In this document: in pieces, positions 1,905-28,373 of the stretch
Numbering within the stretch: position 1 is the first letter of the stretch
How the letters are laid out: each line of letters opens with the position of its first letter
Sequence record: DRR723986_3494
Direction: 5' to 3' (one strand)
DNA: 35,388 nucleotides
The notes under the pieces: model-generated
Databases searched by the model: none
Told to the model about the DNA's origin: nothing
The model's input: only the letters and a program-made list of their open reading frames with translations
Position numbers and translations under genes: made by a program

Positions 1905-2381
1905 ATGACACTTCGCACTACTATTTTGGCGGGCTTTGCAGCAGCGAGCCTAAGCATTTTAGGCAGCCCCTTACACGCGCAATCAGCAAAGGCTGAGCTC
2001 ACGGTTTATAAGTCCCCTCAGTGCGGCTGCTGCACAAAGTGGGCTGACCACATGGATGAAAACGGCTTTGACAGCACCGCGATAAATCGTCACGACATGG
2101 CCACACTAAAGGCCAGCCTCGGCGTTCCCAGCGGGCTCCAATCCTGCCATACCGGTCAAGTGAAGGACTATGTGTTCGAGGGGCATATACCCGCCGACGT
2201 AGTAAAACGCTTTCTTGAAAATCCCCCAGAGGATGCCTACGGCCTCGCCGTGCCCGGTATGCCAATCGGCAGCCCCGGCATGGAAATGGGCACGCGCCAC
2301 CAAGACTACGATGTCATTTTGCTAAAACGCAGCGGCAAGCACGAGGTGTATACCCGCGTTAGTCAGCACAGCGCGCCGTAG
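1905..2381 (+). CDS. copG: DUF411 / CopG-like periplasmic thioredoxin-fold metal-binding protein
   Basis: Signal peptide; motifs VYKSPQCGCCTKW, SCHT, EGHIPA and GLAVPGMPIGSPGME. Start ATG 1905 follows SD AGGA. Confidence 0.88.
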   Translation: MTLRTTILAGFAAASLSILGSPLHAQSAKAELTVYKSPQCGCCTKWADHMDENGFDSTAINRHDMATLKASLGVPSGLQSCHTGQVKDYVFEGHIPADVVKRFLENPPEDAYGLAVPGMPIGSPGMEMGTRHQDYDVILLKRSGKHEVYTRVSQHSAP

Positions 2382-2391
2382 GAGAACAACA

Positions 2392-4227
2392 ATGAAACGT
2401 GAATATCCACCGGCCAACATCCCGCGCCGGCGCTTTGTCACGGGTGCAGCTAGCGTTATTGCCCTGACAGGCCTCGCAGGCTGCGCGAGTCAGGCACCTC
2501 ATCAGCAGGCGGAACGACGCCCTAGCGCAGAGTTACGTGGCAATCGCTTTGACCTGCACATTGACTATCTACCGGTAAACATCACGGGACTCGACAGTCT
2601 GGCAACGGCGGTCAATGGCAGCGTGCCCGCCCCGACCCTGCGCTGGAAGGAAGGTGAAGAAGTGCATATCCGCGTGCACAATCACCTGCCACATACCAGC
2701 TCAATACACTGGCATGGCTTGATTTTGCCAACGGATATGGACGGCGTTCCCGGGCTGAGTTTTGCCGGTATTCCGCCCGGCGGTTACTACGATTACCGAT
2801 TCCAGGTAAAGCAGAGCGGCACCTATTGGTACCACAGCCACTCAGGGTTTCAGGAACAAACGGGGCTCTATGGCGCCATTATTATTGACCCCGCAGATAC
2901 CGACCCAGTCGCCTATGATCGCGAGCACATCATTGTACTCTCTGACTGGAGCGACGAAGCCCCCGAAGCGCTCTATGCCCGCCTGAAAAAGCAGAGCCAT
3001 TACTATAATCGGCGCGAACGAACGGCCGTCGATTTGTGGCAAGACATTCGCAGACACGGGATTGCCGCCACTTGGCGCGACCGCGCCATGTGGAACCGTA
3101 TGCGCATGAGCGACAGCGACATAGCCGATATCAACGGCATCGCCTACACATTTTTAGTGAATGGGCTCAGCCCAGATGCAAACTGGCTTGGCCAATTCTC
3201 CGCCGGCGAACGCCTGCGCTTACGGGTGATTAATGCCGCGGCCATGACCCTGTTCGACGTTCGTATTCCCGGCTTGACGATGACAGTGGTTGCCGCCGAT
3301 GGGCAAAATATCCAGCCGGTCAGTGTTGATGAATTTCGCATCGCACCGGCAGAGACCTACGATGTGATCATTCAGCCCAGCGCCGACCGTGCTTACACAC
3401 TGTTTGCACAGAGCATTGATCGCAGCGGCTATGCGCGGGCAACGCTCAGCCCCAATAAGCAGTGGCAGGCCGAAATACCTGCGATGGACCACATTGTGAG
3501 GCTCGACCACCGAGATATGGGAATGGCTCACGACAACAGCGCGCACACCTCGATGGCGGGCGACGCTATGCCAGCGATGCAGCACAAACGGCCTTCCCAC
3601 GAGGCGCATGCTCACCACGGCCATCACGCGATGATGTCTGAGCCGCTGCCAGATACCCCAGCACCTGCTGGCCACGGCAGCAAGCAAACAATCCAGCATT
3701 CCGCCACTGAATTTGGTGTAGGCGTGGACATGCGCGCAGGTATGCCTGCCAACGGCCTTTCCGACCCAGGCATTGGCCTGCGCGAGCACACAAAGCGCTA
3801 TGGCAGAAAAGTTCTGCGCTACAGTGACCTGTTCGGCCTTCACCCCACCCGCGACCCACGCGACCCGGAGCGAGAGCTGGCAATCCACCTTACTGGCAAT
3901 ATGTCTCGGTACATGTGGTCGATGAACGGCGTCATGTTCGACGACGCCGAGCCGATCATTCTGCGCCACAACGAGCGCCTGCGCTTTGTCGTCGTCAACG
4001 ACACCATGATGACCCACCCCATTCACCTGCACGGCCTGTGGAGTGAGCTGGAGACCGGCGACAGTGGCCACATCCCGCGCAAACACACCGTCATTGTGCA
4101 GCCAGGGTCGCGTATCAGCTACCTCGTTAGCGCCGATGCCATTGGCCGCTGGGCCTATCACTGCCACCTGATGTTTCACATGCCGGGCATGTTTCGCGAG
4201 GTTCGCGTAGTGGGAGGCAAGGTATGA
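2392..4227 (+). CDS. copA: Copper-resistance multicopper oxidase CopA (Tat-exported)
   Basis: Twin-arginine RRRF; Cu-binding motifs IHWHG, YWYHSH, HPIHLHG and HCHLMFHMPGM; His/Met-rich insert; SD GGAG. Confidence 0.96.
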   Translation: MKREYPPANIPRRRFVTGAASVIALTGLAGCASQAPHQQAERRPSAELRGNRFDLHIDYLPVNITGLDSLATAVNGSVPAPTLRWKEGEEVHIRVHNHLPHTSSIHWHGLILPTDMDGVPGLSFAGIPPGGYYDYRFQVKQSGTYWYHSHSGFQEQTGLYGAIIIDPADTDPVAYDREHIIVLSDWSDEAPEALYARLKKQSHYYNRRERTAVDLWQDIRRHGIAATWRDRAMWNRMRMSDSDIADINGIAYTFLVNGLSPDANWLGQFSAGERLRLRVINAAAMTLFDVRIPGLTMTVVAADGQNIQPVSVDEFRIAPAETYDVIIQPSADRAYTLFAQSIDRSGYARATLSPNKQWQAEIPAMDHIVRLDHRDMGMAHDNSAHTSMAGDAMPAMQHKRPSHEAHAHHGHHAMMSEPLPDTPAPAGHGSKQTIQHSATEFGVGVDMRAGMPANGLSDPGIGLREHTKRYGRKVLRYSDLFGLHPTRDPRDPERELAIHLTGNMSRYMWSMNGVMFDDAEPIILRHNERLRFVVVNDTMMTHPIHLHGLWSELETGDSGHIPRKHTVIVQPGSRISYLVSADAIGRWAYHCHLMFHMPGMFREVRVVGGKV

Positions 4228-4904
4228 AGAAACACTATGTACTGTGCGCCGCGCTACTGGCGGGCCCCGCGTTAGCCGGAGGCAAAGCCGACCCCGTGCT
4301 GGCAAAGTTTATGGTCGACGAAGTTGAGCAACGCAGCGACCAACAGCAGGCGTTTAGCCTCCAGGGGTGGCTAGGGACTGACCTCAACAAACTGTGGCTA
4401 AAGGCTGAACGCGAAGCGCACGACGGCTCCACAGAGAGCGCGGAACTTCAGCTTCTGTACAGTCGCGCCATCGCGCCCTATTGGGATCTTCAAGGGGGAC
4501 TGCAACGAAGCTTCAGTGAGGATGGTAGCGACGACAGCGTGGTTATCGGCATACAGGGCCTTGCCCCCTACCACTTTGAAGTCGATGCCGCGGTGTTTAT
4601 CAACGACCAAGCCGAGCTCTCGGCCGAGCTAGAGCTTAGCTACGAACTGAGGCTGACCCAGCGTTGGATTCTGGAACCGGAAATCACACTTGAAGCAGCC
4701 GCTCAGGGCGACTCGGAAAATGGGGCCGGCCTGCGCCGGGAGGAGCACGCCTTGCGGCTCTACTACTATCCAGAGCGGGAATGGGCACCCTATATCGGCG
4801 CAGTGTGGCAGCAGCTGTATGGCGATACCGCCGACATTTCACAACGCCGTGGCAACCCCCGCCAGCAGGAACAGTTTGTGGTGGGAGTGCGCGCTTGGTT
4901 CTAA
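4224..4904 (+). CDS. copB: Copper-resistance outer-membrane protein CopB
   Basis: ATGA overlap with copA; motifs W.G.D.NKLWLKAE, LLYSRAIAPYWD and GIQGLAPY.FEVD; C-terminal VGVRAWF. Confidence 0.93.
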   Translation: MKKHYVLCAALLAGPALAGGKADPVLAKFMVDEVEQRSDQQQAFSLQGWLGTDLNKLWLKAEREAHDGSTESAELQLLYSRAIAPYWDLQGGLQRSFSEDGSDDSVVIGIQGLAPYHFEVDAAVFINDQAELSAELELSYELRLTQRWILEPEITLEAAAQGDSENGAGLRREEHALRLYYYPEREWAPYIGAVWQQLYGDTADISQRRGNPRQQEQFVVGVRAWF

Positions 4905-15116: not shown

Positions 15117-18100
15117 TTATGTTTGGCTCGTGGCGCTAGCCAGTTCGACAAAGGGCAACGCATCGCCATGAAATTTTGCCAACAGGCTGCGGCGAGCGGC
15201 TGCATAGCGTTGAGCGTTCGCCTGCTTCACATGACCAAAGCCCCGCACCTTATCCAGGCTGCTTACCAGCTCTAGCGCGTAGCCTCTGTTTTCGAACGTT
15301 AACTGCGCGGCGATGTCGGCGAGATCTGCGAGAAATTGCTCGCATAATTCTCGCTCCATGCGCCGCTCCGCCGTGTAGGAAAAAATATCCCAGCGACTTC
15401 CTCGCAGGCCCTTGGCCGCGGCGAGTAGTTTAAACGCCGGCAGACACCAGCCGGGCAAGCGGCGCTTTTTGTGCTCGCCAGTATTCGGGTCTACACGACT
15501 TAGCAGGGGCGGCGCCATATGAAACTGCAAAGTGAAATCCCCTTCGAACTGCTCGCGCAGTTGCCGCATAAATTCCCCGTTAGTAAATAAGCGGGCAACC
15601 TCGTATTCATCTTTATATGCCATGACATGGTAGAGCGTGCGGGCCGCCGCGATACTCAGCGACAACGTCTGGCCACCCACCACCGCGCGTTCACTATCGG
15701 CAAGCTGCGTTATTGCGTCGCGGTAACGCTGGGCATAGCGCGCGTTTTGATAATCACACAGCTGGCCGTAACGGTGCTCGACAATCTCGTCCAGGCCGGA
15801 CAGTGGTTGCCAGTGCTCGGCGGCAAGGCCACTGGCCCGTCGCACAGCCAACTCGTCGATTGCCGCCCTGCGCCCCCAGCGGAATGCCCGCTGATTGAAT
15901 TCCACGGCAACATCGTTCAACTCTATCGCCGCGTCTACCGCCTCGCTGGAAACGGGAATTAAACCGCGTTGAAAGGCGTAGCCGAGCATAAAGAAATTAC
16001 TGGCGACGGCGTCGCCCATCAGGTGAGAGGCCATGACCGTGGATTCAATAAAGTGAACCTTTCCGGCGCCGACCTCCTCTTCAATAATTTGCTTCATTTC
16101 ACGGGCAGGAAAGGCCGCATCGGGGTCGAATATCGAGGCCGATGTTGGCGCCTCGCTATCATTAATCACCGCGTGCGAGCGCTCTATATTCACCTTCGCC
16201 ATCGCCTCGTCGCTGGCACTCACTACCAAATCGCAGCCCAACAAAAGATCGGCGTCACCGGCGGGAATACGCACCGCATTGATATCTTCCTGACGACGGG
16301 CAATGCGCAAATGGCTTACTACCGGACCAAACTTTTGCGCTAGCCCGGTCTGGTTCATCGTCGCGCAGCCCTTGCCTTCAATATGCGCCGCCATCGCCAA
16401 TACCGCGGTAACGGTAAGCACACCCGTACCGCCAATGCCTGTAACGACAATATTCCAAGGTTGCTCAAGACTGTGCGCTGCTGGCTCCGGTAGCGCGGCA
16501 AAGTCATTCTCTGCTGTTGCCGTGCTCTGCCTTAAACGGCCGCCGATCACCGAGACAAAACTGGGGCAAAACCCCTTCACGCAGGAGTAGTCTTTGTTGC
16601 AGGCGCTTTGATCAATCTCGCGCTTACGACCCAGCTCCGTTTTTACCGGCACCACCGATAGGCAGTTGGACTTTTTCGCGCAGTCACCACAGCCTTCGCA
16701 TACCGCCTGGTTGATGACCACGCGGCGATTGGGGTCATCCATCAACCCACGTTTACGCCGCCGGCGCTTTTCCGCCGCGCAGGTTTGCTCGTAGATCAAT
16801 ACGCTGCAACCTTTTACCCGGCGCAGCATTTCCTGCACCGGGAGCACTTCATCGCGATGGTGAATACTCAGCCCTTCGGTCTCCGCGAGGGTGTGCTTTT
16901 CAGGTTGGTCAGAAACGAGCGCGATGCGCTCAACGCCCTCTCCGCGCAGCTGCAAAATAATTTGTTCCACACTGAGCTGACCGTCCACCGGCTGGCCGCC
17001 GGTCATTGCCACGGCGTCGTTATAGAGCAGTTTATAAGTGATATTCACGCCGGCAGCGATGGCCTGCCGGATCGCTAAAATTCCCGAGTGGAAATACGTG
17101 CCATCACCGAGGTTCTGGAAAACATGCTCAGTGTCGGTGAAGGCAGCCTGTCCGATCCATGTCACACCCTCGCCGCCCATTTGCGTAAACGTTTGCGCGG
17201 GGCGGCTTTCCATAAACGTGCTCATGTAGTGGCAGCCAATACCCCCCATGGCAATGCTGCCCTCCGGCACTTGTGTAGAGGTATTGTGGGGGCAGCCTGA
17301 GCAGTAATGGGGTTTGCGATCAATCTTGTTGCGCTTGCTCGCCAGCGACTGCTCCTTCTGCTGGTAAAAACTCAGGCGTTTTTCAATGTCTTCACTTTGA
17401 TAAAAACGGCGGATCCTCGCCGCAATGGCCCGGGCCACCATTGCCGGGGTGAGTTCGGACACATTGGGCAGCAGGTCTGCGCCGTGCTCGTCAAATTCAC
17501 CGATCACCCGCGGCCGCTTGTCGACGGCCCAGTTGTAGAGCTGGCCGGTGAGCTGGTCTTCGATGATTGAGCGCTTCTCCTCTACGACCAGAATCTCTTC
17601 CAGGCCACTGGCAAACTCGTGGGTGAGCACTGGCTCCAGTGGCCACGGCATCCCCACTTTGTATACACGCAAACCGATTGCGGCGGCGCTGTCGTGATCG
17701 ATACCCAAATCCTCCAGCGCCTGCATAACATCGAGGTAGGCTTTGCCGCTGGTGATAATGCCCAAACGCGGCTTGGGACTATCAATTACAATGCGATTTA
17801 TATGGTTTGCCAGGGCAAAGGCGCGGGCCGCATAAATTTTGTATTTATTCAGCCGGCGTTCCTGATCCAAGGGAGTGTCGGGCCAACGCAGGTGGACACC
17901 GTCAGCTGGCAAAACAAAGTCCTCGGGCAACACAATATTGATGCGATGGGGATCTATCTCGGCTGAGATCGCCGAATCCATATTCTCGGTGATCGCTTTT
18001 AAGGCCACCCAGCTACCGCAGTAACGCGACAACTCCCAACCAAAGACGCCGAGATCTAACACTTCCTGCACATTTGCCGGGGCCAGTACCGGAATCGAGG

Positions 18101-18596
18101 CACCGATAAACATATGCTCCGACTGATGGGGCAGCGTAGACGACTTGGCTGCGTGATCATCCCCCGCCACCGCGAGTACGCCACCGTATTGGCTGGTGCC
18201 GGCAGCATTGGCATGTTTGATGACATCCATGCTGCGGTCGACACCCGGCCCCTTGCCGTACCACATACCGAACACGCCATCGTACTTCGCATGGCCGTTT
18301 AACCCGAGCTGCTGGCTGCCCCAAACGGCGGTTGCCGCTAAGTCCTCGTTGATGCCCGGTACAAACTTAATATGGTGGCGGTCCAGGTAATCCTGAGCCT
18401 GCCACAGCGTTTGATCCAGTGTGCCCAGTGGCGAACCACGATAGCCCGAAATGAAGCCCGCGGTATTCAGGCCTCGCTCCTGGTCGCGCTGATGCTGAAG
18501 AATGGGTAGGCGCACCAAGGCCTCTATCCCGGTGAGATAGGCCCGGGTCGTGTCCAATGCGTATTTGTCTGCCAGCGATACCTTGCGCAGTGCCAT
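15117..18596 (-). CDS. Indolepyruvate ferredoxin oxidoreductase family protein (fused IorA-IorB)
   Basis: ISGYRGSPLG, CSGCPHN, TPP motif GDGTYFHSG...YNDAVAMTGGQ, ferredoxin motif CEGCGDC...NC and beta-subunit GIGGTGV; 1159 aa. Confidence 0.95.
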   Translation of the reverse strand: MALRKVSLADKYALDTTRAYLTGIEALVRLPILQHQRDQERGLNTAGFISGYRGSPLGTLDQTLWQAQDYLDRHHIKFVPGINEDLAATAVWGSQQLGLNGHAKYDGVFGMWYGKGPGVDRSMDVIKHANAAGTSQYGGVLAVAGDDHAAKSSTLPHQSEHMFIGASIPVLAPANVQEVLDLGVFGWELSRYCGSWVALKAITENMDSAISAEIDPHRINIVLPEDFVLPADGVHLRWPDTPLDQERRLNKYKIYAARAFALANHINRIVIDSPKPRLGIITSGKAYLDVMQALEDLGIDHDSAAAIGLRVYKVGMPWPLEPVLTHEFASGLEEILVVEEKRSIIEDQLTGQLYNWAVDKRPRVIGEFDEHGADLLPNVSELTPAMVARAIAARIRRFYQSEDIEKRLSFYQQKEQSLASKRNKIDRKPHYCSGCPHNTSTQVPEGSIAMGGIGCHYMSTFMESRPAQTFTQMGGEGVTWIGQAAFTDTEHVFQNLGDGTYFHSGILAIRQAIAAGVNITYKLLYNDAVAMTGGQPVDGQLSVEQIILQLRGEGVERIALVSDQPEKHTLAETEGLSIHHRDEVLPVQEMLRRVKGCSVLIYEQTCAAEKRRRRKRGLMDDPNRRVVINQAVCEGCGDCAKKSNCLSVVPVKTELGRKREIDQSACNKDYSCVKGFCPSFVSVIGGRLRQSTATAENDFAALPEPAAHSLEQPWNIVVTGIGGTGVLTVTAVLAMAAHIEGKGCATMNQTGLAQKFGPVVSHLRIARRQEDINAVRIPAGDADLLLGCDLVVSASDEAMAKVNIERSHAVINDSEAPTSASIFDPDAAFPAREMKQIIEEEVGAGKVHFIESTVMASHLMGDAVASNFFMLGYAFQRGLIPVSSEAVDAAIELNDVAVEFNQRAFRWGRRAAIDELAVRRASGLAAEHWQPLSGLDEIVEHRYGQLCDYQNARYAQRYRDAITQLADSERAVVGGQTLSLSIAAARTLYHVMAYKDEYEVARLFTNGEFMRQLREQFEGDFTLQFHMAPPLLSRVDPNTGEHKKRRLPGWCLPAFKLLAAAKGLRGSRWDIFSYTAERRMERELCEQFLADLADIAAQLTFENRGYALELVSSLDKVRGFGHVKQANAQRYAAARRSLLAKFHGDALPFVELASATSQT

Positions 18597-18691
18597 GCTG
18601 CTACCTGCCTGTTATTGTTTTGACTTGGACTAATAATAGGCAGCGGAACGCGAATTTTTTATGTTATTCAGACAGACTAAACGCAGATAAC

Positions 18692-18706
18692 GGTCTAATT
18701 TAGACC
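18692..18706. promoter_or_regulatory. Perfect palindrome, candidate operator upstream of ior
   Basis: GGTCTAA-T-TTAGACC in an AT-rich intergenic region about 100 bp upstream of the ior start. Confidence 0.45.
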
Positions 18707-18722
18707 CAAAAATAAGCGACGC

Positions 18723-18747
18723 AAAAAAAAGCCCGCTTACGCGGGCT
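18723..18747 (-). terminator. Intrinsic terminator of the phytase-like lipoprotein gene
   Basis: Minus-strand hairpin GCCCGC-GTAA-GCGGGC followed by an 8-T tract. Confidence 0.9.
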
Positions 18748-18770
18748 GAGTGATTAGGGCCTGTTATTGT

Positions 18771-21329
18771 TTACTTCACAATATTGCCCAAGTTCAATAG
18801 CTGGATTTCGCCACTGTTGTCATCGACGCCGTCGTTGTCATTGATGATCAGCACGTCGCCATTGGCCATCAGGGCAGCCCCCTCTATTTTTTCGGGCACC
18901 AGTCCGCCTGGCATCTGCAAATCATCCATCAGGTCACGCACCAATGTTTTGGTCACAGTATCGCCGGTTACCAAGCCACTAAGGTCGAACTCATAAAGGC
19001 GTTTAATTGCCGCATCAGGGCCGCCTTGATTATCGCGCTCGATGACCATGAAGCGCTCGCCACCCAGTGCGGTAATCTCAGACAAACCAACCCAACCACC
19101 GTTTTGGGAAAGCGCAGCATCCAGGGGGTAGAAGAAGAAGTTCCAGGTACTGGTGGCCGGATCGTAAACACCAATGCGCGGTTCAGTGTCACCTTGCCAG
19201 GCGCGCTGGAAAGCCACGTAGACTTTACCGCCCTGCTCCGCGACGCCTTCAAAACCGAAGCGCTGCTGCGTGGCGTTAACGCTGCCAGGCAGGGTGATTA
19301 CCTGCTCGATCACCGCCTCAGCCGATAGCTTGATAAGCATATTCAAACTGTTGATCGGCCGGTTGTCATCGCCGATGGTTCCGCTGCCCTCAGAGACCAA
19401 CCAAAAGCCCCCGTCGCTGGCTTGAGCCAAACCTTCCGGGTCGAGGTTGACCGTTTTATCATCGTTCACCAGCGCCGCGCGGTCTGCGACATCAAAGACG
19501 CCAACGCGGCTGGGGTGGTCGTCATCAACACTGCTATCCGCGAGCGCGATGGCAGGCAATGACGCGAGTACATCGTTGCTGTCGAGAATGCGCATTTCTT
19601 TATTCAAACGCGCTGGTTGCTCGGCGGTGTCGATGGTAAAGATCCGGCTGCGCTGATAGAAGCTGTCTTCAACGGCATATACCGTGGTGGCCTGGTGGCG
19701 GTCAGCGGCGAGCGCCGATATCGCCGAGAAGGGAATCGGGCTGCCATCTTCACGGTCAGTGGAGAGCACAGTGGGGTACTGCGCAGCAGCGGAGTCGTAG
19801 CGATAGATATTGAGCGCCGCGCGGAATTTGTCATCGCGGGCATCTTCTTCACTGGCCACCACCAGCAAATTTCTCGAGGGGATCGCAAGCGCTCCCTCGG
19901 GCCCCAGTGCCGTGGGTAATACCTGCTTTAATACCGGCTTGCGCAGATCCGCCACATCGTAAACGAAGGCAACACTTGAACGCTCCGAGTTCACGAACAA
20001 ATAGCGCTCACTGCCAAACACAGCAAATTCCGCATTCTCTGGTTCGTTACCTTTATTGCCGGAACGCCCGTCGGGGTAATGCCCCAGTCGCGCCACCCAG
20101 TGATCGAGCTGCTCAGCACTGTCGAAATGCAGTTCGCCCTCTTTATCGAAAACGCTGAACCCGCGGCTACCGCCATTAAGGTCACCCTCGTTGGCCGTAG
20201 CGAAATACTGGCTCGACAACCACGTCACCCCATCGGGCTCACGGGGAACCGCGCTGAGTGAGTCGACCTGACTGATTAATGCCGGCTCTTCTTCCTGGGT
20301 GTCAACGGCGTTTAGATCGCCGGTGCCAGCACTAAAATGATTAACGATGCTGCCATCTGTCAGGTCGATTAATACCAAGTGGTTGTTTTCCTGCAGGGTA
20401 ACCACCGCGATGTTGTCAGCGTTGATGTCCACATACTCTGGCTCGGGGTCTTCGGGGAACAGCGTGGCAAGACCGGTCAAGGCGACATTGCGCACCGCCC
20501 ACGACGCCGGATCAGCCGCGGCAATATCGACAATATCGACACTGCCCGCCGGTAATTGTGGAGGCTCGCCATTTCCGAGGTCCTCGTCGCGCTCATTCTC
20601 AATAGCCACGGCGGCGTAGCGACCGTCCGGGCTTACTGCGACTGAATCGGGCTGCCCAGCGAGATCAAGCTGTTGAACGATGCTGCGGCTAGCGATATCC
20701 ACCACCGCCAGTTTGCCGGATACGTTGACAAAATCCGCGGAGGTATTCACGCCCACTAGCGCATAACCGCCCTTCACCGCCACCGAGGTTGGCTCGCCGC
20801 CAAGCGGCAGTGCGCCCAGGCCCGTGGGTTGGTCTGGCGTGGTGATATCGACAAAACCAATACTGTCGCTGGGGCTGTCGGTGTAAATCAGTACATTGCC
20901 ATCTTCGCTGGCGGCAACAATCTCTGCCGCCGTTTCGGCGTCGGTATCACAGCTGGCATCCAGCTGCTGACAAACGGCGTAGGTGGCGATGCGATTGAAA
21001 TTTTTGTCGTCATTGAGCTGAGTCGGATCGCACAGGGTGGTCGACTGATCAACCTCTGCGGCATCTAATGCACCGTCGCCGTTATCGTCCAAACCTGAAT
21101 CAATGCGCAAACCGCCGTCGAAACACTGGAGGTCACCCACGGGCAGCCGGTGTTGGCTAATTAGGCTGTTTATGCCGTCGCTGCCATTGCTACCATTTTG
21201 ACCGTCACTACCGGCAATACCCTGCGGACCCTGAGCACCGTTTCGGCCATCGTCACCACCACAGGCCACCAACATCAGCGATGACGCAATTAGCACCCCA
21301 CTAGCGATCGCATTCTTTGTAAAACGCAT
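18771..21329 (-). CDS. Multidomain lipoprotein: collagen-like linker, beta-propeller (choice-of-anchor-I-like) and phytase-like esterase domain; putative phosphatase
   Basis: Lipobox LVAC, ten G-X-Y triplets and a C..GG..I.SG.D.NG.G.LD..EV module. Motifs EPEYV, REPD, TANEGD and EPE in the first propeller; DPEGLA, GFEGV, GLSEI, VIERDN, KIEG and INDNDG in the second. Start ATG 21329 follows SD GGAG. Confidence 0.8.
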   Translation of the reverse strand: MRFTKNAIASGVLIASSLMLVACGGDDGRNGAQGPQGIAGSDGQNGSNGSDGINSLISQHRLPVGDLQCFDGGLRIDSGLDDNGDGALDAAEVDQSTTLCDPTQLNDDKNFNRIATYAVCQQLDASCDTDAETAAEIVAASEDGNVLIYTDSPSDSIGFVDITTPDQPTGLGALPLGGEPTSVAVKGGYALVGVNTSADFVNVSGKLAVVDIASRSIVQQLDLAGQPDSVAVSPDGRYAAVAIENERDEDLGNGEPPQLPAGSVDIVDIAAADPASWAVRNVALTGLATLFPEDPEPEYVDINADNIAVVTLQENNHLVLIDLTDGSIVNHFSAGTGDLNAVDTQEEEPALISQVDSLSAVPREPDGVTWLSSQYFATANEGDLNGGSRGFSVFDKEGELHFDSAEQLDHWVARLGHYPDGRSGNKGNEPENAEFAVFGSERYLFVNSERSSVAFVYDVADLRKPVLKQVLPTALGPEGALAIPSRNLLVVASEEDARDDKFRAALNIYRYDSAAAQYPTVLSTDREDGSPIPFSAISALAADRHQATTVYAVEDSFYQRSRIFTIDTAEQPARLNKEMRILDSNDVLASLPAIALADSSVDDDHPSRVGVFDVADRAALVNDDKTVNLDPEGLAQASDGGFWLVSEGSGTIGDDNRPINSLNMLIKLSAEAVIEQVITLPGSVNATQQRFGFEGVAEQGGKVYVAFQRAWQGDTEPRIGVYDPATSTWNFFFYPLDAALSQNGGWVGLSEITALGGERFMVIERDNQGGPDAAIKRLYEFDLSGLVTGDTVTKTLVRDLMDDLQMPGGLVPEKIEGAALMANGDVLIINDNDGVDDNSGEIQLLNLGNIVK

Positions 21330-21365
21330 TATTGTTCTCTCCAACTCGGAATAAGGTTGGGGAGC

Positions 21366-21450: not shown

Positions 21451-23163
21451 TTAGTCTTGGTAACCGCTGATGTGCTTGGCGGCCTGGTAGGCGAAGGTCA
21501 TCGCAGGCCCCAATGTTGAGCCCGGGCCCGGGTAGGTTGGCAGCACCGCCGCGCTACAGTTGCCCACCGCGTAGAGGCCATCGATTGCCTGGCCATCCTC
21601 TTTCATCACCTGTGCGTTGGGGTTCGTGGCCAGCCCGCCCTGTGTGCCGAAGTCACCGGCGTCGACACGAATCGCATAAAACGGCGCTTCGTCAATGGCG
21701 CCCAAACAGGGGTTGGGCTCAAAGCGCTGATCGCCATAGTAGCGGTCATAGGCCGAGTCGCCGCGCTGGAACTCGGGGTCTTTACCGGTTTTCGCATAGC
21801 CGTTCATTTTTTCAACGGTCTTTTCGAGGTTGTCGGCGTTAATGCCCAGCTGCCCGGCCAACTCGCGAATACTGTCAGCCTTGCCGACCAACTTGGTGTC
21901 AAACCAATTCTTGGGAATCGTCCAGTCCGGTTTGAGTTGGGCCGTCATTAATGGACCAACAATGTAGTCGCGGCGAAAACGCGCGTCGAACACCTGGTAC
22001 ATCGGTGAACAGGGGTTCTCTTCGCTGTGCACTTGGTAGAGGTCTTTCTGGAAGGCCATATAGTTTTGCGACTCATTGGCAAAACGCTCGCCATTCATAT
22101 TCACCACACAGGAGCCAGGGAAGGATTTCTCCATAATGCTCAAACGCGGTGCCGGCTCTCCTGGCACAGAGATCGTGGTACACCACCAGGCGCCATCCAT
22201 CAGGCGGGTAGCCGCACCCAGGCGCATACCTTCGTTGATCGCGTCGCCAGTGTTGCCGTCCACCCCACCGCTCCACTGTGTGCTGGTGGGCGCGGGCAAA
22301 TATTTTTCGCGCATGGCTTGATTCTTCTCAAAGCCGCCGGCCGCCAGCACCACGCCCTTGCGGGCCTGAATGCGCATACGCTTGCCTTGCTTGCTAACTT
22401 CGGCACCCACCACGCGACCATTCTCTTCGATCAGCGATAGCATGGGGCTTTCGGTCCACAGCGGAATGTCGCGCTTCTTCAGCGAGTACCACAAGCGCGC
22501 CACTCCCGCAGCCCCGGTACACACCTTGCGGCTTGTTTTGCGGCCGCGCAGCAGCCAGCCGAAATCCAGGAAATAGCTGGCCATCAGTTTTAGCGTCAGC
22601 TTTACCCAACCCGGCCCCTGAACAGTTAGCAACGCCGCCTCAACCTGGGTGAAATAAATACGATCAAACAGGCGCATCATGTGATGCGAGGGGCGCAGGC
22701 GTTTGACATCGTCGCCCAATAGCGAAGAATCAAAACGCTCCGGCTCCATTGAGCGGTGGCCCGTGCGCGAGCCTTCGACATTGGTGTAGTAATCAGGATA
22801 GTGCTCCAGAGTCTCGTAGCGCACATCGCTGCGCTGGTGCAGAAACTCGACCATCTTCGGGCCGTTCTCCAGATAGGCATCGACCATTTCTTCAGGCACC
22901 GCGCCCTCGGGCGTGGTATTCAGCAAGTATTGTTTTGCATCCGCGATGCTGTCCTGCGCGCCCGCCGCCTTTGCATAGCGATTATTGGGAATCCACACAC
23001 CGCCACCCGACGTTGCGCTGGTACCACCAACAAGCTCGGATTTTTCAAGCAATAGGACGTCGGTAACACCCATTTCGTAGCAGCTGAGAGCGGCGGTCAT
23101 GGCGCCATTACCACTGCCGACCACCAAGACGTCGACGCTGTGATCCCAGTTTTGTTCTGTCAT
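21451..23163 (-). CDS. kstD: FAD-dependent oxidoreductase, 3-ketosteroid-delta1-dehydrogenase-like
   Basis: VVGSG, GGTSATSGGGVWIPNN, YPDYY, RFANESQNY, GLYAVGN and YPGPGSTLG. The tyrosines in the YPDYY, ESQNY and YPGPG motifs correspond to KstD active-site positions. Confidence 0.75.
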   Translation of the reverse strand: MTEQNWDHSVDVLVVGSGNGAMTAALSCYEMGVTDVLLLEKSELVGGTSATSGGGVWIPNNRYAKAAGAQDSIADAKQYLLNTTPEGAVPEEMVDAYLENGPKMVEFLHQRSDVRYETLEHYPDYYTNVEGSRTGHRSMEPERFDSSLLGDDVKRLRPSHHMMRLFDRIYFTQVEAALLTVQGPGWVKLTLKLMASYFLDFGWLLRGRKTSRKVCTGAAGVARLWYSLKKRDIPLWTESPMLSLIEENGRVVGAEVSKQGKRMRIQARKGVVLAAGGFEKNQAMREKYLPAPTSTQWSGGVDGNTGDAINEGMRLGAATRLMDGAWWCTTISVPGEPAPRLSIMEKSFPGSCVVNMNGERFANESQNYMAFQKDLYQVHSEENPCSPMYQVFDARFRRDYIVGPLMTAQLKPDWTIPKNWFDTKLVGKADSIRELAGQLGINADNLEKTVEKMNGYAKTGKDPEFQRGDSAYDRYYGDQRFEPNPCLGAIDEAPFYAIRVDAGDFGTQGGLATNPNAQVMKEDGQAIDGLYAVGNCSAAVLPTYPGPGSTLGPAMTFAYQAAKHISGYQD

Positions 23164-23316
23164 AGTTCTTATTCCGGCGTGCTGGCCCAGTTATCGCGGT
23201 CGAACTGCGTCCATCGGGCGTATTTAAAGTGTATGATCGGCCATCATGGTAGCCCCACGCCCCGCAGCACCCAATCATCCGTCTGCATGAGGCTGACCCG
23301 TACTCGGAGAAATCAC

Positions 23317-23997
23317 ATGTCGACGCTCTATGACCGTTATTTATCGCGCGCTATTGATCAACACGGCAGCATCGCTGCCATAGAAGCGCAATTGCCCAGC
23401 CATAAGAGCCCCGCTGAACTGATCGGCACACCGGACGACCGCTACCTCGCTGAAATGGCGGCCTGTATTTTTCGTGCGGGCTTTGTGTGGCGCGTTGTCG
23501 GCCAAAAGTGGCCTGGCTTTGAGGAGGTTTTCAATCGCTTTCTGCCCATCTGGGTGGCGATGCGCTCCCCCGAGCAGATAGAGGAGATGGCCAGCGATAC
23601 GCGAATTATTCGCAACCTGAGCAAGGTGCGCGCGGTACAGGAAAACGCCCATTTCGTTTTAGAGCTGCAGGAGAAGCATGGTGGCGTGGGCCAATTCCTC
23701 GCCGATTGGCCCAGTGATGACACCATCGGTCTTTGGGCATATCTGAAAAAACATGGCTGCCGACTCGGCGGCAATAGCGGCCAATACTTCCTGCGCTTTG
23801 TCGGCAAGGATACGTTCGTATTGAGCCGTGACGTGGCCACCGCCTTGATGGCCGAGGGAATTGTTGACCGCACCCAGATCACTGCCAAACGCGACCTGAT
23901 CAAGGTACAGGATGCCTTCAATACACTGCAGGCCCAGAGCGGCCGACCACTGTGCGAGATCAGTATGATTCTCGCACTTTCTCTGGGCCCGCGCTGA
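23317..23997 (+). CDS. DNA-3-methyladenine glycosylase I (Tag)-like protein
   Basis: Motifs IFRAGFVWRVV..KWPGFEEVF and D.RIIRN..K. Start ATG 23317 follows SD GGAG. Confidence 0.78.
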   Translation: MSTLYDRYLSRAIDQHGSIAAIEAQLPSHKSPAELIGTPDDRYLAEMAACIFRAGFVWRVVGQKWPGFEEVFNRFLPIWVAMRSPEQIEEMASDTRIIRNLSKVRAVQENAHFVLELQEKHGGVGQFLADWPSDDTIGLWAYLKKHGCRLGGNSGQYFLRFVGKDTFVLSRDVATALMAEGIVDRTQITAKRDLIKVQDAFNTLQAQSGRPLCEISMILALSLGPR

Positions 23998-24005
23998 ACC
24001 TTCGC

Positions 24006-25859
24006 TTAGTGCAGATCGGCGACCACACCGACTTGCGGCAGGTTGGCTAAGCCGATGTCCCGGGCGTGTTCCTCGAAGTCTTTGTTCTTCCAGAAGAATG
24101 CGCCGGGCATCGTGGTCGGTACAACCAATACATAAAACAGCGCCCGCCCAATTACCGCATAGGCCAACACACATAAGCTCAACGCCGCCGCGATCAAGCC
24201 TGTGGCGACGCCACCCTGCGTGAGGGTAAGGCCCAGAGCAATCACCGCGCTAAGCAACAACAGCGTATTGCGCAGCAGATAACTTTTGGCAAACACCGTT
24301 GTTTGAATGTAATGGGAAACGCTGCCCTCGTTGTTGGCAACATTCATTGCTCGGGCATGTTGCCACAGACCCAGCCCCTCGATTAGCGCAGCGACCACAA
24401 TCAGCCCGCCCCCCAGGGCAAGCATGGCGACGGTGTTTTCAGCTGCGCCGCTGGCCGGCGCGCTAAGCAACATAAACCACAAGCAAACAATACCGCCGAG
24501 AGCCAGGGCAGAGCCAACAAAGCTGCTACCTGTTTGCCAGTGATTCCAAAAGGGCCGTGCAGGAATCCGATAGCAGCGATACATGTAATACAGGCCAACG
24601 GCGCCAGACACCAGTGCGAGTGTACTCAACACAGCGGCTGCGACCGGGTAGTGCCCCCAATCGCCAAACCAACGCTGAAATACCGCATTATCGGGCAGCA
24701 CGCTCAGTAAATGCAGGCCGGCAAACACCATGTATAGCAGCATGCCCAAGCCCTCGCGGCACACTGGGGAATGGCGAAGATTATTGAAGCCGCGGTAAAA
24801 GCGCAGCGGCTTGCCCAAGTGGGTTGCCGACATCAGCATGCCGACACCTGCCAGGGCGACAACCAGCGCAACAAACGGCACATACAGCGCCGATGAGCGC
24901 AGCGCGAGTATCGGCTCAAGGGCGAATGCCGAACCCAGCGTACTAATGGCAAAGGCCCCCAAGGACGCCTGACTAACCAGTGTAAAAATCACCAAGGGGT
25001 TTTCGCGAGAGCTCAGCTTGTCCAGCCCCCAACGCTTTTCAACGCCCTTTTTCTGGTCCACAACCGGGCGGTACTCACCCTGCTCATCTTTGTGATATTT
25101 CACCGCCATACCATCGGTGCGTGTCACCTCATCCGGCATGCGTTTAGTTTGCTGGAAGCGAATATTCGGATGCGTAATTTCCGGGCTGGGAAAACCGGGA
25201 ATACTGAGCTTCGCCTGCTCGCGATTCTCCGGCAGATCTTCCACGACACCGAAATTAAGCGCGTTACCCAGGCAGGCAGAAACACAGGCCGGCTTTAAAT
25301 TTACTTCCAGGCGATCAACGCACATATTGCATTTGCTCACCTGGCCTTTTATTGGGTCTAACTGCGGCGCATTGTAGGGGCAAACCCACGTGCAATAACC
25401 GCAACCAAAACAGGTTTCCGGGTCTTGCAATACCGCGCCATACTCAACATGTTTGGTATAGGCGCGCGTTGGACACCCCTTCAGACACACCGGATCGTCG
25501 CAGTGATTACAGGCCATTGAGATATTCATGCGCTTGAAATCGGGGTAACTGCCTCCCTCGACATAGCCCACTGACCGAAAGCTGATATGCGCGGGGTTAT
25601 CATTTTTTTCACTGCACGCAGCCTCACAGGCGTGGCAGCCAATGCAGTTGTCGGCGGTAAAGTGAAAGGCGTGTTGCTTGTTGCGATTCGGGTTGCTGCC
25701 CACGCCAGGCTCTTCATTGATAAACATTTCGCGCCCGGCAGGCACAGCGCCGCCGCTGCGGGCGATCAGATCAATGGGCGCCTCATAGTAATTCACCTCA
25801 GGCGCGCCAGACTCTTTCAGGAAAGCGTACTGCGGCTCATCGTCTCGAACCTTCCACAT
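24006..25859 (-). CDS. Fused DmsB-like four-cluster Fe-S domain and DmsC/YnfH-like membrane anchor
   Basis: Four Cys groups (CIGCHACEAAC, CNHCDDPVCLKGC, CFGCGYCTWVC, CNMC...PACVSAC), then E.PLVIFTLVSQ, HLGKPLR and NLRHSPVCRE with about 8 hydrophobic helices. Confidence 0.92.
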   Translation of the reverse strand: MWKVRDDEPQYAFLKESGAPEVNYYEAPIDLIARSGGAVPAGREMFINEEPGVGSNPNRNKQHAFHFTADNCIGCHACEAACSEKNDNPAHISFRSVGYVEGGSYPDFKRMNISMACNHCDDPVCLKGCPTRAYTKHVEYGAVLQDPETCFGCGYCTWVCPYNAPQLDPIKGQVSKCNMCVDRLEVNLKPACVSACLGNALNFGVVEDLPENREQAKLSIPGFPSPEITHPNIRFQQTKRMPDEVTRTDGMAVKYHKDEQGEYRPVVDQKKGVEKRWGLDKLSSRENPLVIFTLVSQASLGAFAISTLGSAFALEPILALRSSALYVPFVALVVALAGVGMLMSATHLGKPLRFYRGFNNLRHSPVCREGLGMLLYMVFAGLHLLSVLPDNAVFQRWFGDWGHYPVAAAVLSTLALVSGAVGLYYMYRCYRIPARPFWNHWQTGSSFVGSALALGGIVCLWFMLLSAPASGAAENTVAMLALGGGLIVVAALIEGLGLWQHARAMNVANNEGSVSHYIQTTVFAKSYLLRNTLLLLSAVIALGLTLTQGGVATGLIAAALSLCVLAYAVIGRALFYVLVVPTTMPGAFFWKNKDFEEHARDIGLANLPQVGVVADLH

Positions 25860-25910
25860 AAACTAAGCCCTTCTTGGTGTAATGGGGGATGTCACGGCTA
25901 ACACGGCCAA

Positions 25911-28094
25911 CTAGAAAGCCCGGCGTTCAACGTTGAGTCGCGCCGCCTCCTTTTGATCAATATGTTCAATGCGCACGGCACACTGCTTGAAGGCTGGCTG
26001 GCGGGAATAGGGGTCAAGCAATCCCAGCGACAGCCGGTTAACACAGTCGTGATAATGCATGGGGATAAACAGCATATTGCGGGGAACCCGCTGCGTGAGC
26101 TGCACCATAACGACAGCGTCACCGCGACGCGACACCAGACGCACATAGCTCTGGTGGCTCACCCCGGCCGCGCGCGCGGAGTCTGGATTCATTTCCATGT
26201 AAGGCGTTGGACTGAACTTATTGAGGTTTCCAATTTTTCCGGTTTTAGTGCGGGTGTGGAAATGCTCCACGACACGGCCGCTGTTCATCCAGAAAGGATA
26301 GTGCTCATCCGGTACCTCATTGTCCTCAATGTAGTCCATGGCCAGCAGGTTGGCGCGCCCGTTTGCAGTGGGGAACACGCCGTCGCTGTACAACCGTGGG
26401 CTACCCGTTTCATCACCCTCGCGCATCGGCCATTGGATGCCGCGCTGCGCTTCAATCAGATCATGGCTCATGCCGGAGATATCCAAATTCCGGCCACGAC
26501 CTTTTGACAACTGCTTCATTTCATCGAAAATTTCAGAGGTCGTCTCGGGAAAAGCGATTTCCCTGCCCCGCTCAAAACGTTTGGCCAGCTGCGAGAAAAT
26601 CCAATGATCGGGCTTGGCGTCGCCCGGCGGCGAGGTAAACTTGCGCACCAAATTTACCCGCCGCTCAGTGTTCGTTTGTACCCCTTCTTTTTCCCCCCAC
26701 ACGGCAGCGGGAAGATAAACATGGGCATAGTCGACCGTTTCACAGTCGCGGTAGCCGTCCTGCACCACCATAAATTCGAGCTTCTCCAAGGCCTTTTTAA
26801 TTCGCGGTTGGTTCGGCATGGAGGTCAACGGGTTGGTGGCAACGATCCACAAGGCCTTAATATCGCCCGACTCTATCGCCGGAAAAATATCGGTCTGTTG
26901 CAAACCGCGCTTTGCCGGGAAGAAGGATTCATCAACCCCCCAAAACTGGGCCACCTCCTTGCGGTGTTCCGGCTTCTCAAGCATACGATAGCCCGGCAGG
27001 CCAGAGCAGGATGACCACTCCCGGGTGCCCATGGCGTTGCACTGCCCGGTAATAGACAGGCTGGTCCCGCCGGGCACGCCGATATTGCCGGTAATCAGGT
27101 TGAGGTTATTAATGCCGCACACGCCGTCGGTGCCGTGGGTACTCTGATTGATACCCATCGTCCAGATGCTCATTGCCGACGGTGCCTTTGCGTAAATGCG
27201 GGCCACATGCTTGATGGTGTCTGGGTCGATACCACATATTCGCGAGGCGGTGATGGGGTCATATTTTTCTACTGTCGCAGCAAGCTCATCAAAGCCGTTG
27301 CAGTGGGCGTCTATATAAGACTGATCCTGCAAGCCCTCCTTCAAAATGACATGAGCTAAGGCGTTTAGCAGAACCAGGTCAGTACCCGGTGTTATCGGTA
27401 AGTGGATATCGGCAAATTGCGCCAGCATGGTCACGCGCGGGTCGACAACAATCAGTGGAAACTTGCGCTTCTCCAACGCCTCTTTTAGTCGCCAATAAAT
27501 AATGGGGTGTTGCTCAGGGAGGTTTGAGCCAAAGGCCATCAGGCAGTGAGTATTTTCGAAGTCCTCGTAGCAGCCGGGCGGCCCATCAGCGCCGAATGAG
27601 CGTTTATAACCGGACACTGCCGATGCCATACACAGTGTGGTGTTGCCATCGTAGTTGTTGCTACCAATTACCCCGCGAACCAATTTTCCCAGGGTGTAAA
27701 ACTCTTCTGTCAGCAGTTGGCCGGTGGACACAATCGCCACGCTATCGCGACCGTACTTCTGCTGGATTCGCATAAACTCCTCAGCCGTGCGATCGAGCGC
27801 GCTATCCCAACTGGCTGGAGAAAACGCGTCGTATATCCGGTCACGCATCAGCGGCTGCGTACCACGACCAGCGGTGCCACTCAGTTCATGCTCGAAGATA
27901 CCCTTTATGCACAGCTTGCCCTGATTAACCGGCGCATTGCCCTTGCCGCGACTCGCCACCGGCTTTCCGTCGGCATTCAAACCGACCTCAATTGAGCACC
28001 CCGTGGAGCAATAACCACAGACGGCGTACTTCCAGTCCACTACCTGCTTGTCAGCAATCGTAATGGGCTTGCGTTTTCTGCGACCGAATATCAT
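25911..28094 (-). CDS. Molybdopterin oxidoreductase catalytic subunit, nitrate-reductase (NasA/NarB/NapA)-like
   Basis: N-terminal CGYCSTGC...LCIKG 4Fe-4S motif, Mo ligand LCMASA, WTMGINQ, SITGQCNAMGTRE, EKEGVQTNTERR and C-terminal SGRVVEHFHTRTKT and SRQPAFKQCAV. Start ATG 28094 follows SD GAGGG. Confidence 0.9.
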   Translation of the reverse strand: MIFGRRKRKPITIADKQVVDWKYAVCGYCSTGCSIEVGLNADGKPVASRGKGNAPVNQGKLCIKGIFEHELSGTAGRGTQPLMRDRIYDAFSPASWDSALDRTAEEFMRIQQKYGRDSVAIVSTGQLLTEEFYTLGKLVRGVIGSNNYDGNTTLCMASAVSGYKRSFGADGPPGCYEDFENTHCLMAFGSNLPEQHPIIYWRLKEALEKRKFPLIVVDPRVTMLAQFADIHLPITPGTDLVLLNALAHVILKEGLQDQSYIDAHCNGFDELAATVEKYDPITASRICGIDPDTIKHVARIYAKAPSAMSIWTMGINQSTHGTDGVCGINNLNLITGNIGVPGGTSLSITGQCNAMGTREWSSCSGLPGYRMLEKPEHRKEVAQFWGVDESFFPAKRGLQQTDIFPAIESGDIKALWIVATNPLTSMPNQPRIKKALEKLEFMVVQDGYRDCETVDYAHVYLPAAVWGEKEGVQTNTERRVNLVRKFTSPPGDAKPDHWIFSQLAKRFERGREIAFPETTSEIFDEMKQLSKGRGRNLDISGMSHDLIEAQRGIQWPMREGDETGSPRLYSDGVFPTANGRANLLAMDYIEDNEVPDEHYPFWMNSGRVVEHFHTRTKTGKIGNLNKFSPTPYMEMNPDSARAAGVSHQSYVRLVSRRGDAVVMVQLTQRVPRNMLFIPMHYHDCVNRLSLGLLDPYSRQPAFKQCAVRIEHIDQKEAARLNVERRAF

Positions 28095-28206
28095 GAAATC
28101 CCTCATTGTTGCGCACTGTTTGTGTGCTAAACCGAGCCCACGGGGGCTAAAAAAGCGCACCAACTTGGTGAATTGCCAAGCAAATCACCGCATCTACTCT
28201 GGATTT

Positions 28207-28223
28207 AACAAGAACTATGCCAA
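28207..28223 (-). promoter_or_regulatory. Putative sigma54 (-24/-12) promoter of the molybdoenzyme operon
   Basis: Minus strand TTGGCAT-AGTTC-TTGTT against consensus TGGCAC-N5-TTGC. Spacing is exact; the -12 element is TTGT rather than TTGC. Confidence 0.6.
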
Positions 28224-28284
28224 CTAACTAAATCAGGCTGAAAGCCAGTAAATACGGCGGGCTATTCGGCAACACAGAACAACT

Positions 28285-28301
28285 CGCCCTCAATTGGGGC
28301 A
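28285..28301. promoter_or_regulatory. NtrC-like enhancer site (further copies at 28156-28172 and 28113-28127)
   Basis: CGCCC-TCAATTG-GGGCA, CGCACCAACTTGGTGAA and GCAC-TGTTTGT-GTGC all fit or nearly fit GCAC-N7-GTGC. Confidence 0.5.
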
Positions 28302-28346
28302 TGACAAGTTGGGGAGTATTTAACAGGAGGGGGTCGAAATTCAGGC

Positions 28347-28373
28347 AAAAAAAGGGGCCCTCAGGGGCCCCTT
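28347..28373 (-). terminator. Intrinsic terminator of ompA/oprF
   Basis: GGGGCCC-N4-GGGCCCC hairpin followed by a 7-T tract on the minus strand. Confidence 0.92.

Follow-up and report, generated by a model that had tools for sequence, protein, structure and literature searches.

Which enzyme results when a cytoplasmic subunit resembling nitrate reductases is encoded together with a membrane protein resembling the partner subunits of dimethyl sulfoxide (DMSO) reductase? This question is raised by two adjacent genes, referred to here as A and BC, that occupy positions 24006-28094 of record DRR723986_3494, both on the minus strand; the stretch analyzed comprises 35,388 nucleotides (nt) and is called the window throughout. 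To our knowledge, reviews present bacterial assimilatory nitrate reductases as soluble enzymes that are fed by NADH, ferredoxin or flavodoxin. We contend that A and BC together probably constitute a membrane-anchored, cytoplasm-facing assimilatory nitrate reductase that receives its electrons from quinol. The reading has two parts of unequal strength: reduction of nitrate for assimilation is very likely the role of the pair and, if this is granted, there is a good, somewhat lower likelihood that quinol serves as the donor.

25911-28094, minus strand: gene A, cytoplasmic catalytic subunit of the molybdenum bis(pyranopterin guanine dinucleotide) (Mo-bisPGD) type, 727 amino acids (aa), from open reading frame (ORF), Pfam and residue alignment.
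24006-25859, minus strand: gene BC, four-cluster ferredoxin domain fused to an eight-helix anchor of the DmsC type, 617 aa, from Pfam, alignment and model.

Translation of A likely starts at the ATG at 28094, which stands just behind a GAGGG ribosome-binding site and agrees with homologues beginning MIFGR or MLFGR; these two features disfavor a TTG start in the longer frame that extends to 28163. Three Pfam domains are recognized, namely Molybdop_Fe4S4 (PF04879), Molybdopterin (PF00384) and Molydop_binding (PF01568), and the Pfam scan found neither a Fer2_BFD (2Fe-2S) tail nor any other domain after Molydop_binding. The cysteines of the FS0 cluster are C26, C29, C33 and C62. A twin-arginine translocation (Tat) signal is absent, the first FS0 cysteine being residue 26 with no hydrophobic stretch before it, whereas in E. 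coli NapA this cysteine is residue 46 and stands behind an SRRSFMK signal. ORF, Pfam and N-terminal comparison agree with the first-pass annotation of the locus, which had described a 727-aa subunit of the Nas/Nap type with neither a Tat signal nor a C-terminal 2Fe-2S extension; a periplasmic catalytic subunit, which it had named as a finding that would count against it, is not borne out, as A carries no signal peptide.

The active site can be read from the alignment with characterized enzymes. The molybdenum ligand of A is C155, followed by M156 (LC155-M156ASAV), and these residues align with Cys140-Met141 of D. desulfuricans NapA, whereas two formate dehydrogenases have C-H where A and NapA have Cys-Met. 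R358 is the equivalent of NapA Arg354, and the arginine that precedes the GQ motif in formate dehydrogenases is threonine in A, as it is in NapA. Because the residue-level alignment sides with NapA over the formate dehydrogenases, the predicted active site of A is of the nitrate-reductase type and not of the formate-dehydrogenase type. The closest solved structures are two formate dehydrogenases and D. desulfuricans NapA, all at ~440 bits.

Gene BC lies 51 nt downstream of A and has a ribosome-binding site of its own (AAGGG). Its product is divided as follows.

25230-25670, minus strand: iron-sulfur (Fe-S) domain of BC, residues ~64-210, with Cys motifs from C72, C117, C150 and C177/C192 (DMSO_dmsB, alignment).
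24120-25004, minus strand: DmsC-type anchor of BC, residues ~286-580, eight helices (PF04976, DmsC alignment, model).
24006-24119, minus strand: soluble, conserved C-terminal tail of BC (VPTTMPGAFFWKNKDFEEHARDIGLA...H), from alignment.

Pfam assigns Fer4_11 (7e-22) and DmsC (PF04976; 53.2 bits, cut-off 22.3) to this protein, and the DMSO_dmsB model matches residues 62-210 with 157 bits, under its cut-off of 214. In the alignment of 16 sequences on which the conservation and charge counts for BC are based, the 16 cysteines of four complete motifs are invariant (16/16), which together with Fer4_11 and PF04976 upholds the initial description of a four-cluster Fe-S domain fused to a DmsC-type anchor. 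The N-terminal 63 residues are conserved as well. Alignment with E. coli DmsC (dmsC gene from NC_000913), which does not have the C-terminal tail, matches the anchor helix by helix, and the AlphaFold model is confident for the eight anchor helices (predicted local distance difference test, pLDDT, ~90). H347 and E369 of BC align with His65 and Glu87 of E. coli DmsC (numbering checked on the K-12 gene), residues which we take to have a role in menaquinol binding; both are invariant in 16/16 sequences, as is the whole loop between helices 2 and 3.

The orientation of the anchor is indicated by its charges. Lysine plus arginine residues in the loops number 12-17 (mean 14.1) on the Fe-S side and 0-2 (mean 0.9) on the opposite side in all 16 sequences, a bias that is reversed in E. 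coli DmsC (4 versus 7). By the positive-inside rule, this inverted bias places the Fe-S side in the cytoplasm; the Fe-S domain and the putative quinol site of BC are thus predicted to face the cytoplasm, the module being turned over relative to DmsABC. The early suggestion of a quinone-linked, cytoplasm-facing enzyme gains support, at the level of sequence, from both the charge bias and the retained quinol-site residues.

Some BC homologues have a 40-55-residue N-terminal extension, which the BC of the window does not carry. In Roseateles and Uliginosibacterium (alignment A1, rows P0220 and P0241) the extension holds a Cys-rich stretch, GGCGKPECGSGGCGS, that could be an extra metal site.

We infer that the products of A and BC form a complex in which quinol would be oxidized at the DmsC-type site, located at the cytoplasmic surface of the eight-helix anchor. 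Electrons would then run through the four [4Fe-4S] clusters of the fused ferredoxin domain to the FS0 cluster and on to the Mo-bisPGD center of A, where nitrate would be turned into nitrite in the cytoplasm; NirBD, encoded elsewhere in this organism, would take the nitrite to ammonium. The step is expected to be electroneutral because both half-reactions would take place on the cytoplasmic side, and by using quinol in place of NADH the cell would keep the energy conserved between NADH and quinone.

The genomic surroundings of homologous pairs bear on the substrate. A scan of species genomes recovered relatives of BC in at least 584 of them, the best locus among those listed being that of Neomelitea salexigens DSM 19753 (98% identity). 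From the species-genome scan, 80 related loci were taken (81 with the window), a sample that is skewed to close relatives. An A orthologue lies no more than 400 nt upstream of BC in 72 of the 80 and farther upstream in five, while in three the contig is too short; the pairing of A with BC is not a matter of chance. A second sample of 401 genomes was drawn evenly across the class Gammaproteobacteria (in the GTDB sense, including Burkholderiales); its genomes are related to one another and hence not independent, and its tallies include two genomes flagged as unpublished (G038 and G116), both NirB-positive and without the fusion. The full-length fusion (≥52% identical) is present in 57/401 of these genomes and NirB in 164/401, with NirB scoring above the cut-off in 55 of the 57 fusion genomes versus 109 of the 344 others. 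The start of nirB lies within 10 kb of the pair on the same contig in 43/57 genomes, at a median of 5.0 kb, which fits the gene order nirB-nirD-A-BC. Common layouts are narK-STK-nirB-nirD-A-BC (STK, serine/threonine kinase) and cobA-nirB-nirD-narK divergent from A-BC. ORF clustering of the 81 loci placed NirB (31 loci), NirD (21) and a Ser/Thr kinase-phosphatase (21) within 10 kb, and also recovered NarK (16 to 19) and uroporphyrinogen-III methyltransferase (nine); a stricter tblastn count found NirB at 21/80 related loci. Regulators of the ANTAR/NIT-like kind are present at some of the loci. In genomes without the pair, canonical NasA of ~900-1000 aa holds the place beside nirB.

The pair had initially been described as standing alone, with no nitrite reductase, nitrate transporter, napBCD, narGHJI or TorD-type chaperone gene adjacent. 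The Pfam and NCBIfam scans found no nir, nas, nap, nar or chaperone gene in the window, and the description is accurate for the window and for Spongiibacteraceae; it does not extend to the system at large, as the survey of homologue neighborhoods, a check proposed with the description itself, brought out nirB within 10 kb in the 43 genomes mentioned. The stand-alone site, flanked by an OmpA-like gene and a glycosylase-like gene, is common to the Spongiibacteraceae loci L010-L018, and the isolated position is a trait of this family and not of the system.

The nearest relative genome used (G001; 99% complete, sharing 66% of the sampled 31-letter words of the window) offers a missing-reductase argument. 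Its nirBD genes are divergent from those for a NarK-family transporter and a Ser/Thr kinase-phosphatase, and this cluster has no reductase gene next to it. Only three Mo-bisPGD proteins are encoded in G001, and the two besides A are 23-27% identical to A and lack both the Cys ligand and the GQxNAxG..R motif. A search of the genome for a separate nasA, also proposed at the outset, revealed no further protein of this kind: A is the only nitrate-reductase-like protein in G001, and any nitrate reduction by this bacterium would be predicted to depend on A. The option of an unconventional assimilatory nitrate reductase, which the first-pass annotation had named as the first of two, is favored by the predicted active site, the nirBD/narK linkage and the gene content of G001. 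The two other Mo-bisPGD proteins of G001 are cytoplasmic, comprise 717 and 746 aa (L002:1303-3456 and L003:571-2811) and match no named family.

The A proteins form a family of their own. Orthologues in the even sample are 65-76% identical to A of the window and the next-best Nas-type proteins at most 43%, with a gap between the two groups, among the matches listed with two candidates per genome. In a quick LG+G4 tree of 49 rows, in which 21 of 63 A-family rows were kept together with the window protein, the A family forms one branch (Shimodaira-Hasegawa-like approximate likelihood ratio test, SH-aLRT, 100) with a stem length of 0.8. A separate clade (support 99) contains S. meliloti pSymB NarB, all second Nas copies from pair loci and the nirB-adjacent NasA, so that the phylogenetic check called for at the outset sets the A family apart from the clade with S. 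meliloti NarB. The tree neighbors of the A family are two Nap-like proteins of 824 and 831 aa (support 96; L106 G291:C11 and L109 G112:C139), which match NapA models from the signal region on, far under the cut-offs; this join is flagged as a meeting of long branches and was given no weight. No A-family member was found on a catalogued plasmid, the 729 records of the plasmid catalogue that match A all being below 60% identity.

Database names for these proteins are mostly generic, as had been anticipated, and include 'molybdopterin oxidoreductase family protein', 'DmsC/YnfH family anchor' and even 'aspartate carbamoyltransferase'. Three records submitted by the Joint Genome Institute (JGI) are named 'nitrate reductase (quinol-dependent)' catalytic or transmembrane subunit, so an annotator had already reached the same idea. 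Full-text literature searches, with subscription journals largely outside their coverage, returned no publication describing the A-BC pairing. According to the portion of PMC7331816 available to us, a broad phylogeny of the DMSO-reductase family, no member of the Fdh/Nas/Aio/Nap clade is tied to canonical four-cluster or anchor subunits, a statement about this branch that the A-BC pair contradicts. In a second large phylogeny of this family, Nas proteins are described as cytoplasmic and purely assimilatory, with no anchor mentioned in the available part of the text (PMC10100899).

Several observations weigh against a quinol-fed assimilatory nitrate reductase. Clusters of the DmsB type are as a rule matched to menaquinol. 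No nitrogen gene is linked to the pair in this window, and the AlphaFold model of BC is poor for residues 1-285, which include the Fe-S domain (pLDDT <50). The scores of A stay under the cut-off of every NCBIfam equivalog: the best is Fdh-alpha (TIGR01591) with 574 bits (cut-off 666), followed by NasC with 503 (1100), NasA_Halo with 490 (1000), the NapA models with 421-441 (904-931), dmsA_ynfE with 136 (778) and narG with 40 (1084), and a narH match in the pair reaches 47 bits (524); canonical proteobacterial NasA proteins likewise miss the Nas cut-offs. The literature yielded no enzyme assay or mutant of any A-BC family member. The API 20NE nitrate test records nitrite accumulation in rich medium and so leaves room for a repressed assimilatory enzyme. 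The pair occurs in members of the genus Zhongshania, as judged by protein matches, and the test was negative in all seven Zhongshania/Marortus strains tabulated in the accessible part of PMC12216289; this outcome would fit an ammonium-repressed assimilatory enzyme and lends the reading no support. Of uncertain bearing is the nasA mutant of Alteromonas macleodii ATCC 27126, which loses growth on nitrate (PMC4899447): the mutated gene may or may not belong to the A family, and the 120 best relatives (81-100% identical) of an Alteromonadaceae family member include no protein from A. macleodii.

The coexistence of the pair with canonical NasA also speaks against the reading in its simplest form. 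For the even sample, in which two candidates per genome were scored and 144 further matches lie outside the tally, counts of a second NasA are lower bounds: at least 16/57 pair genomes have, besides A, a canonical NasA-like protein of 886-964 aa, and in at least seven of them (G270, G136, G301, G288, G315, G392 and G227) it is encoded directly behind BC. Among the related loci, 10/80 have a second Nas-like gene within 10 kb. A strict anti-correlation between the pair and canonical NasA is ruled out by these genomes, and because at least 16/57 keep both, the pair is not a simple replacement for NasA; it may have a distinct role or be favored under certain redox or carbon conditions. Loci with both enzymes (L040, L056, L057, L075, L031, L032, L037 and L047) include gene strings of the form A-BC-c3-NasA or A-BC-(NADH flavoprotein)-NasA, in which NasA has the BFD-type 2Fe-2S tail and the NADH flavoprotein, present in some of these operons, resembles the N-terminal half of NirB. 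Such strings would combine two nitrate reductases with different predicted donors in one row of genes.

The small gene c3 stands behind BC in 28/81 loci (e.g., L022:12007-12399 and L047:11911-12309) and encodes a conserved, soluble protein of ~125 aa with the motifs SYFD, NPDYLVTW and EWWEW, for which no Pfam, NCBIfam or Atlas family match was found. It was considered as a chaperone or third subunit and rejected, since its profile is present in only 2/57 pair genomes and 0/23 NirB-positive genomes without the pair; the homologue in G001 (L090:1483-1851) lies behind serA and is unlinked to the pair. c3 is not a general part of the system.

An alternative role for the same chemistry is that of a quinol:nitrate oxidoreductase that is mainly dissimilatory or redox-balancing, a non-pumping cytoplasmic electron sink acting at low oxygen or with excess reductant, in which NirBD would detoxify nitrite and assimilation would be a by-product or be left to NasA. 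The genomes that keep NasA, including those with the string A-BC-NasA, suggest non-redundant enzymes and thereby speak for such a role, as does a quinol-linked design typical of respiratory enzymes. We nevertheless consider it improbable. Thirty of the 57 pair genomes have a single Nas/Nap/Fdh-type match at E ≤ 1e-60 (two candidates per genome scored), yet 55/57 have NirB. The usual neighbors, moreover, are an assimilatory set (narK-type transporter, kinase, nirBD and cobA), and a haem-less anchor with one-sided half-reactions would presumably conserve no energy. The negative nitrate-to-nitrite test in the seven Zhongshania/Marortus strains, so far as the accessible part of the source goes (PMC12216289), also tells against an electron sink.

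A different proposal retains assimilatory nitrate reduction by A and assigns to BC the part of a scaffold or Fe-S relay instead of a quinol oxidase, the DmsC domain being a tether only and the donor being NADH via NirB/NirD, ferredoxin or flavodoxin. In most lineages nirB and nirD lie directly upstream, Paracoccus NasC is fed by the nitrite reductase flavoprotein and a Rieske-type protein, and the conserved N-terminal 63 residues and C-terminal tail of BC are without an assigned role, all of which could accommodate a soluble donor. The His65/Glu87 equivalents and the helix 2-3 loop are nevertheless invariant in 16/16 sequences, which a passive tether would not need; eight helices are a costly tether; and the pair is unlinked to nirBD in this organism. 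On balance, the proposal is improbable. Another substrate (chlorate, selenate or an N-oxide), or a dehydrogenase feeding the quinone pool in the manner of SoeABC or formate dehydrogenases, could be argued from the best NCBIfam score (Fdh-alpha), from the two formate dehydrogenases among the best PDB matches, from the lack of any tie to nitrogen metabolism in this window and from SoeABC, a cytoplasm-facing Mo enzyme on a haem-less anchor that works in the oxidizing direction, but is very unlikely given that the (Sec/Cys)-His pair and the arginine before GQ are absent, that the NapA-type Cys-Met and arginine are present, and that the linkage to nirBD is strong and specific (43/57 within 10 kb; 55/57 versus 109/344), so that the first-pass option of an enzyme for some other N- or S-containing compound has lost most of its ground.

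The leader of A contains conserved elements that hint at nitrogen control of the proposed nitrate reductase.

28209-28222, minus strand: TGGCATAGTTCTTG box (TGGCA-N4-TCTTG), resembling a sigma-54 -24/-12 promoter (leader comparison).
28157-28170, minus strand: GGTGC-containing palindrome CACCAAGTTGGTGC, conserved in leaders.
28113-28127, minus strand: GGTGC-containing palindrome GCACACAAACAGTGC, conserved in leaders.

TGGCA and TCTTG are invariant in 9/9 Spongiibacteraceae leaders that are otherwise divergent, the conserved blocks being the box, the two palindromes and the ribosome-binding site. We take the box to follow the sigma-54 consensus, which would make it a candidate promoter, and the palindromes to follow the NtrC-site consensus, small hairpins being the alternative. 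A T-run after the first palindrome gives it a terminator-like appearance in the window. The blocks may represent sigma-54/NtrC control or an attenuator; an Rfam scan of the leader returned nothing relevant. In G001 the strict box, TGGCAYNNTTCTTG, occurs twice, in the A leader and inside an unrelated ORF. The box was rejected as a mark of a regulon shared with nirB and narK, the strict form not being in the leaders of these genes in G001, and the search of G001 for an ANTAR regulator gave one sub-threshold match only (24.4 bits, cut-off 27.3).

Six metatranscriptome runs contain at least half of the sampled words of the window. In 4/4 runs compared (three studies), contigs of 4.3-4.9 kb span A, BC and their junction at ~99% identity. 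A contig with both genes is not proof of a single transcript, and RNA libraries may contain DNA. In all four runs, contig cover is missing at 28192-28355 and stops at 28180-28189, where two of the contig ends show adapter letters; since the comparison had RNA runs only, neither the common stop nor the gap was used as evidence of a transcript start or of RNA origin.

Downstream, the pair meets a convergent gene.

23140-23997, plus strand: ORF of 285 aa that ends 9 nt from the BC stop, with a partial methyladenine glycosylase match (residues 107-190).

Spongiibacteraceae loci keep this ORF at the same position (cluster 14). Elsewhere the window encodes hda, an AI-2E transporter, a DUF2066 protein, an OmpA-like gene, purMN, a KstD-like flavoprotein and copAB. 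The last belong to a copper-handling cluster at 1827-4904 (plus strand) with a DUF411 protein, a multicopper oxidase of the CopA type and CopB. The region 15117-21344 (minus strand) contains a 1159-aa protein with POR and DUF6537 domains (indolepyruvate/2-oxoacid ferredoxin oxidoreductase type) and, adjoining it, an 857-aa secreted-looking protein with choice-of-anchor I, DUF7151 and phytase-like esterase domains.

If the pair is indeed fed by quinol, the consequences reach beyond this locus. We lean slightly towards the view that it represents a third, widespread class of assimilatory nitrate reductase, in which a Nas-type subunit is wired to the quinone pool through a cytoplasm-facing fused DmsB-DmsC protein. 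Nitrate assimilation in about one in seven sampled gammaproteobacterial species (in the GTDB sense, Burkholderiales included) would then draw on quinol instead of NAD(P)H or ferredoxin, and cells with NasA in the same operon could use either a cheap route from quinol or one from NADH. For many marine heterotrophs, hydrocarbon degraders and freshwater Burkholderiales, nitrate nitrogen would cost less energy than is assumed, and assimilation would be coupled to respiratory-chain redox state. These genomes would be misread by surveys that rely on nasA counts or list the fusion as 'DMSO reductase'. The design is common in marine and freshwater bacteria, generically annotated and apparently without experimental study.

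A comparison with known systems places the pair between several of them. With the soluble Nas enzymes (Klebsiella NasA with NasC, Paracoccus NasC with NasG/NasB, Sinorhizobium NarB and Synechococcus NarB) it shares a cytoplasmic Mo-bisPGD subunit with an N-terminal FS0 cluster and a Cys ligand followed by Met, and in most lineages a location beside nirBD, a nitrate transporter and cobA. Unlike them, A is without the BFD-type 2Fe-2S tail that the canonical proteins at the same loci have, its partner is an anchor-fused four-cluster protein and not an NADH flavoprotein, ferredoxin or flavodoxin, and it belongs to a separate clade with at most 43% identity among the matches listed. E. coli DmsABC and other complex iron-sulfur molybdoenzymes (CISM) have the same combination of a Mo-bisPGD subunit, a four-cluster ferredoxin and an eight-helix, haem-less anchor of the DmsC family, of which BC retains the His65 and Glu87 equivalents. 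In contrast to DmsABC, the B and C modules are joined in one polypeptide, A belongs to the Nas/Nap/Fdh branch and not the DmsA branch and has no Tat signal, no chaperone of the DmsD/TorD type, nor any other NarJ/TorD-family protein (PF02613), was found in G001, and the charge bias turns the predicted assembly to the cytoplasm. A quinol-fed pair would show that, in nature, a CISM-type module can be inverted in the membrane and taken over by another catalytic lineage.

NarGHI, which reduces nitrate with quinol, is likewise cytoplasm-facing and membrane-bound and is built of Mo, Fe-S and anchor modules, but NarG is of another lineage with an Asp ligand. NarI, a dihaem cytochrome b, has its site of quinol oxidation on the periplasmic side and generates a proton gradient, whereas BC has an anchor of the DmsC type, which would not do so. 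From NapA the pair differs in the missing Tat signal of A and in having no nap genes in the window. By its overall architecture the pair can be likened to SoeABC of Allochromatium vinosum, a Tat-less, cytoplasm-facing Mo-bisPGD enzyme with a four-cluster protein and a haem-less anchor; SoeABC consists of three separate subunits with an NrfD/PsrC-type anchor and a larger catalytic subunit, and is a dehydrogenase of sulfur metabolism. The catalytic subunit YjgC of Bacillus subtilis ForCE (PDB 8rqz/9gzq) is among the structure matches of A, but with 985 aa and a match that begins at residue 262 it has extra N-terminal Fe-S domains that A does not have. ForCE has been described as a noncanonical menaquinone-linked formate dehydrogenase (PMC8808070). 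It is cytoplasmic and of the Fdh/Nas branch, as A is, and has the link to the quinone pool that is predicted for the pair; it differs in acting on formate and in having no partner of the DmsB-DmsC type.

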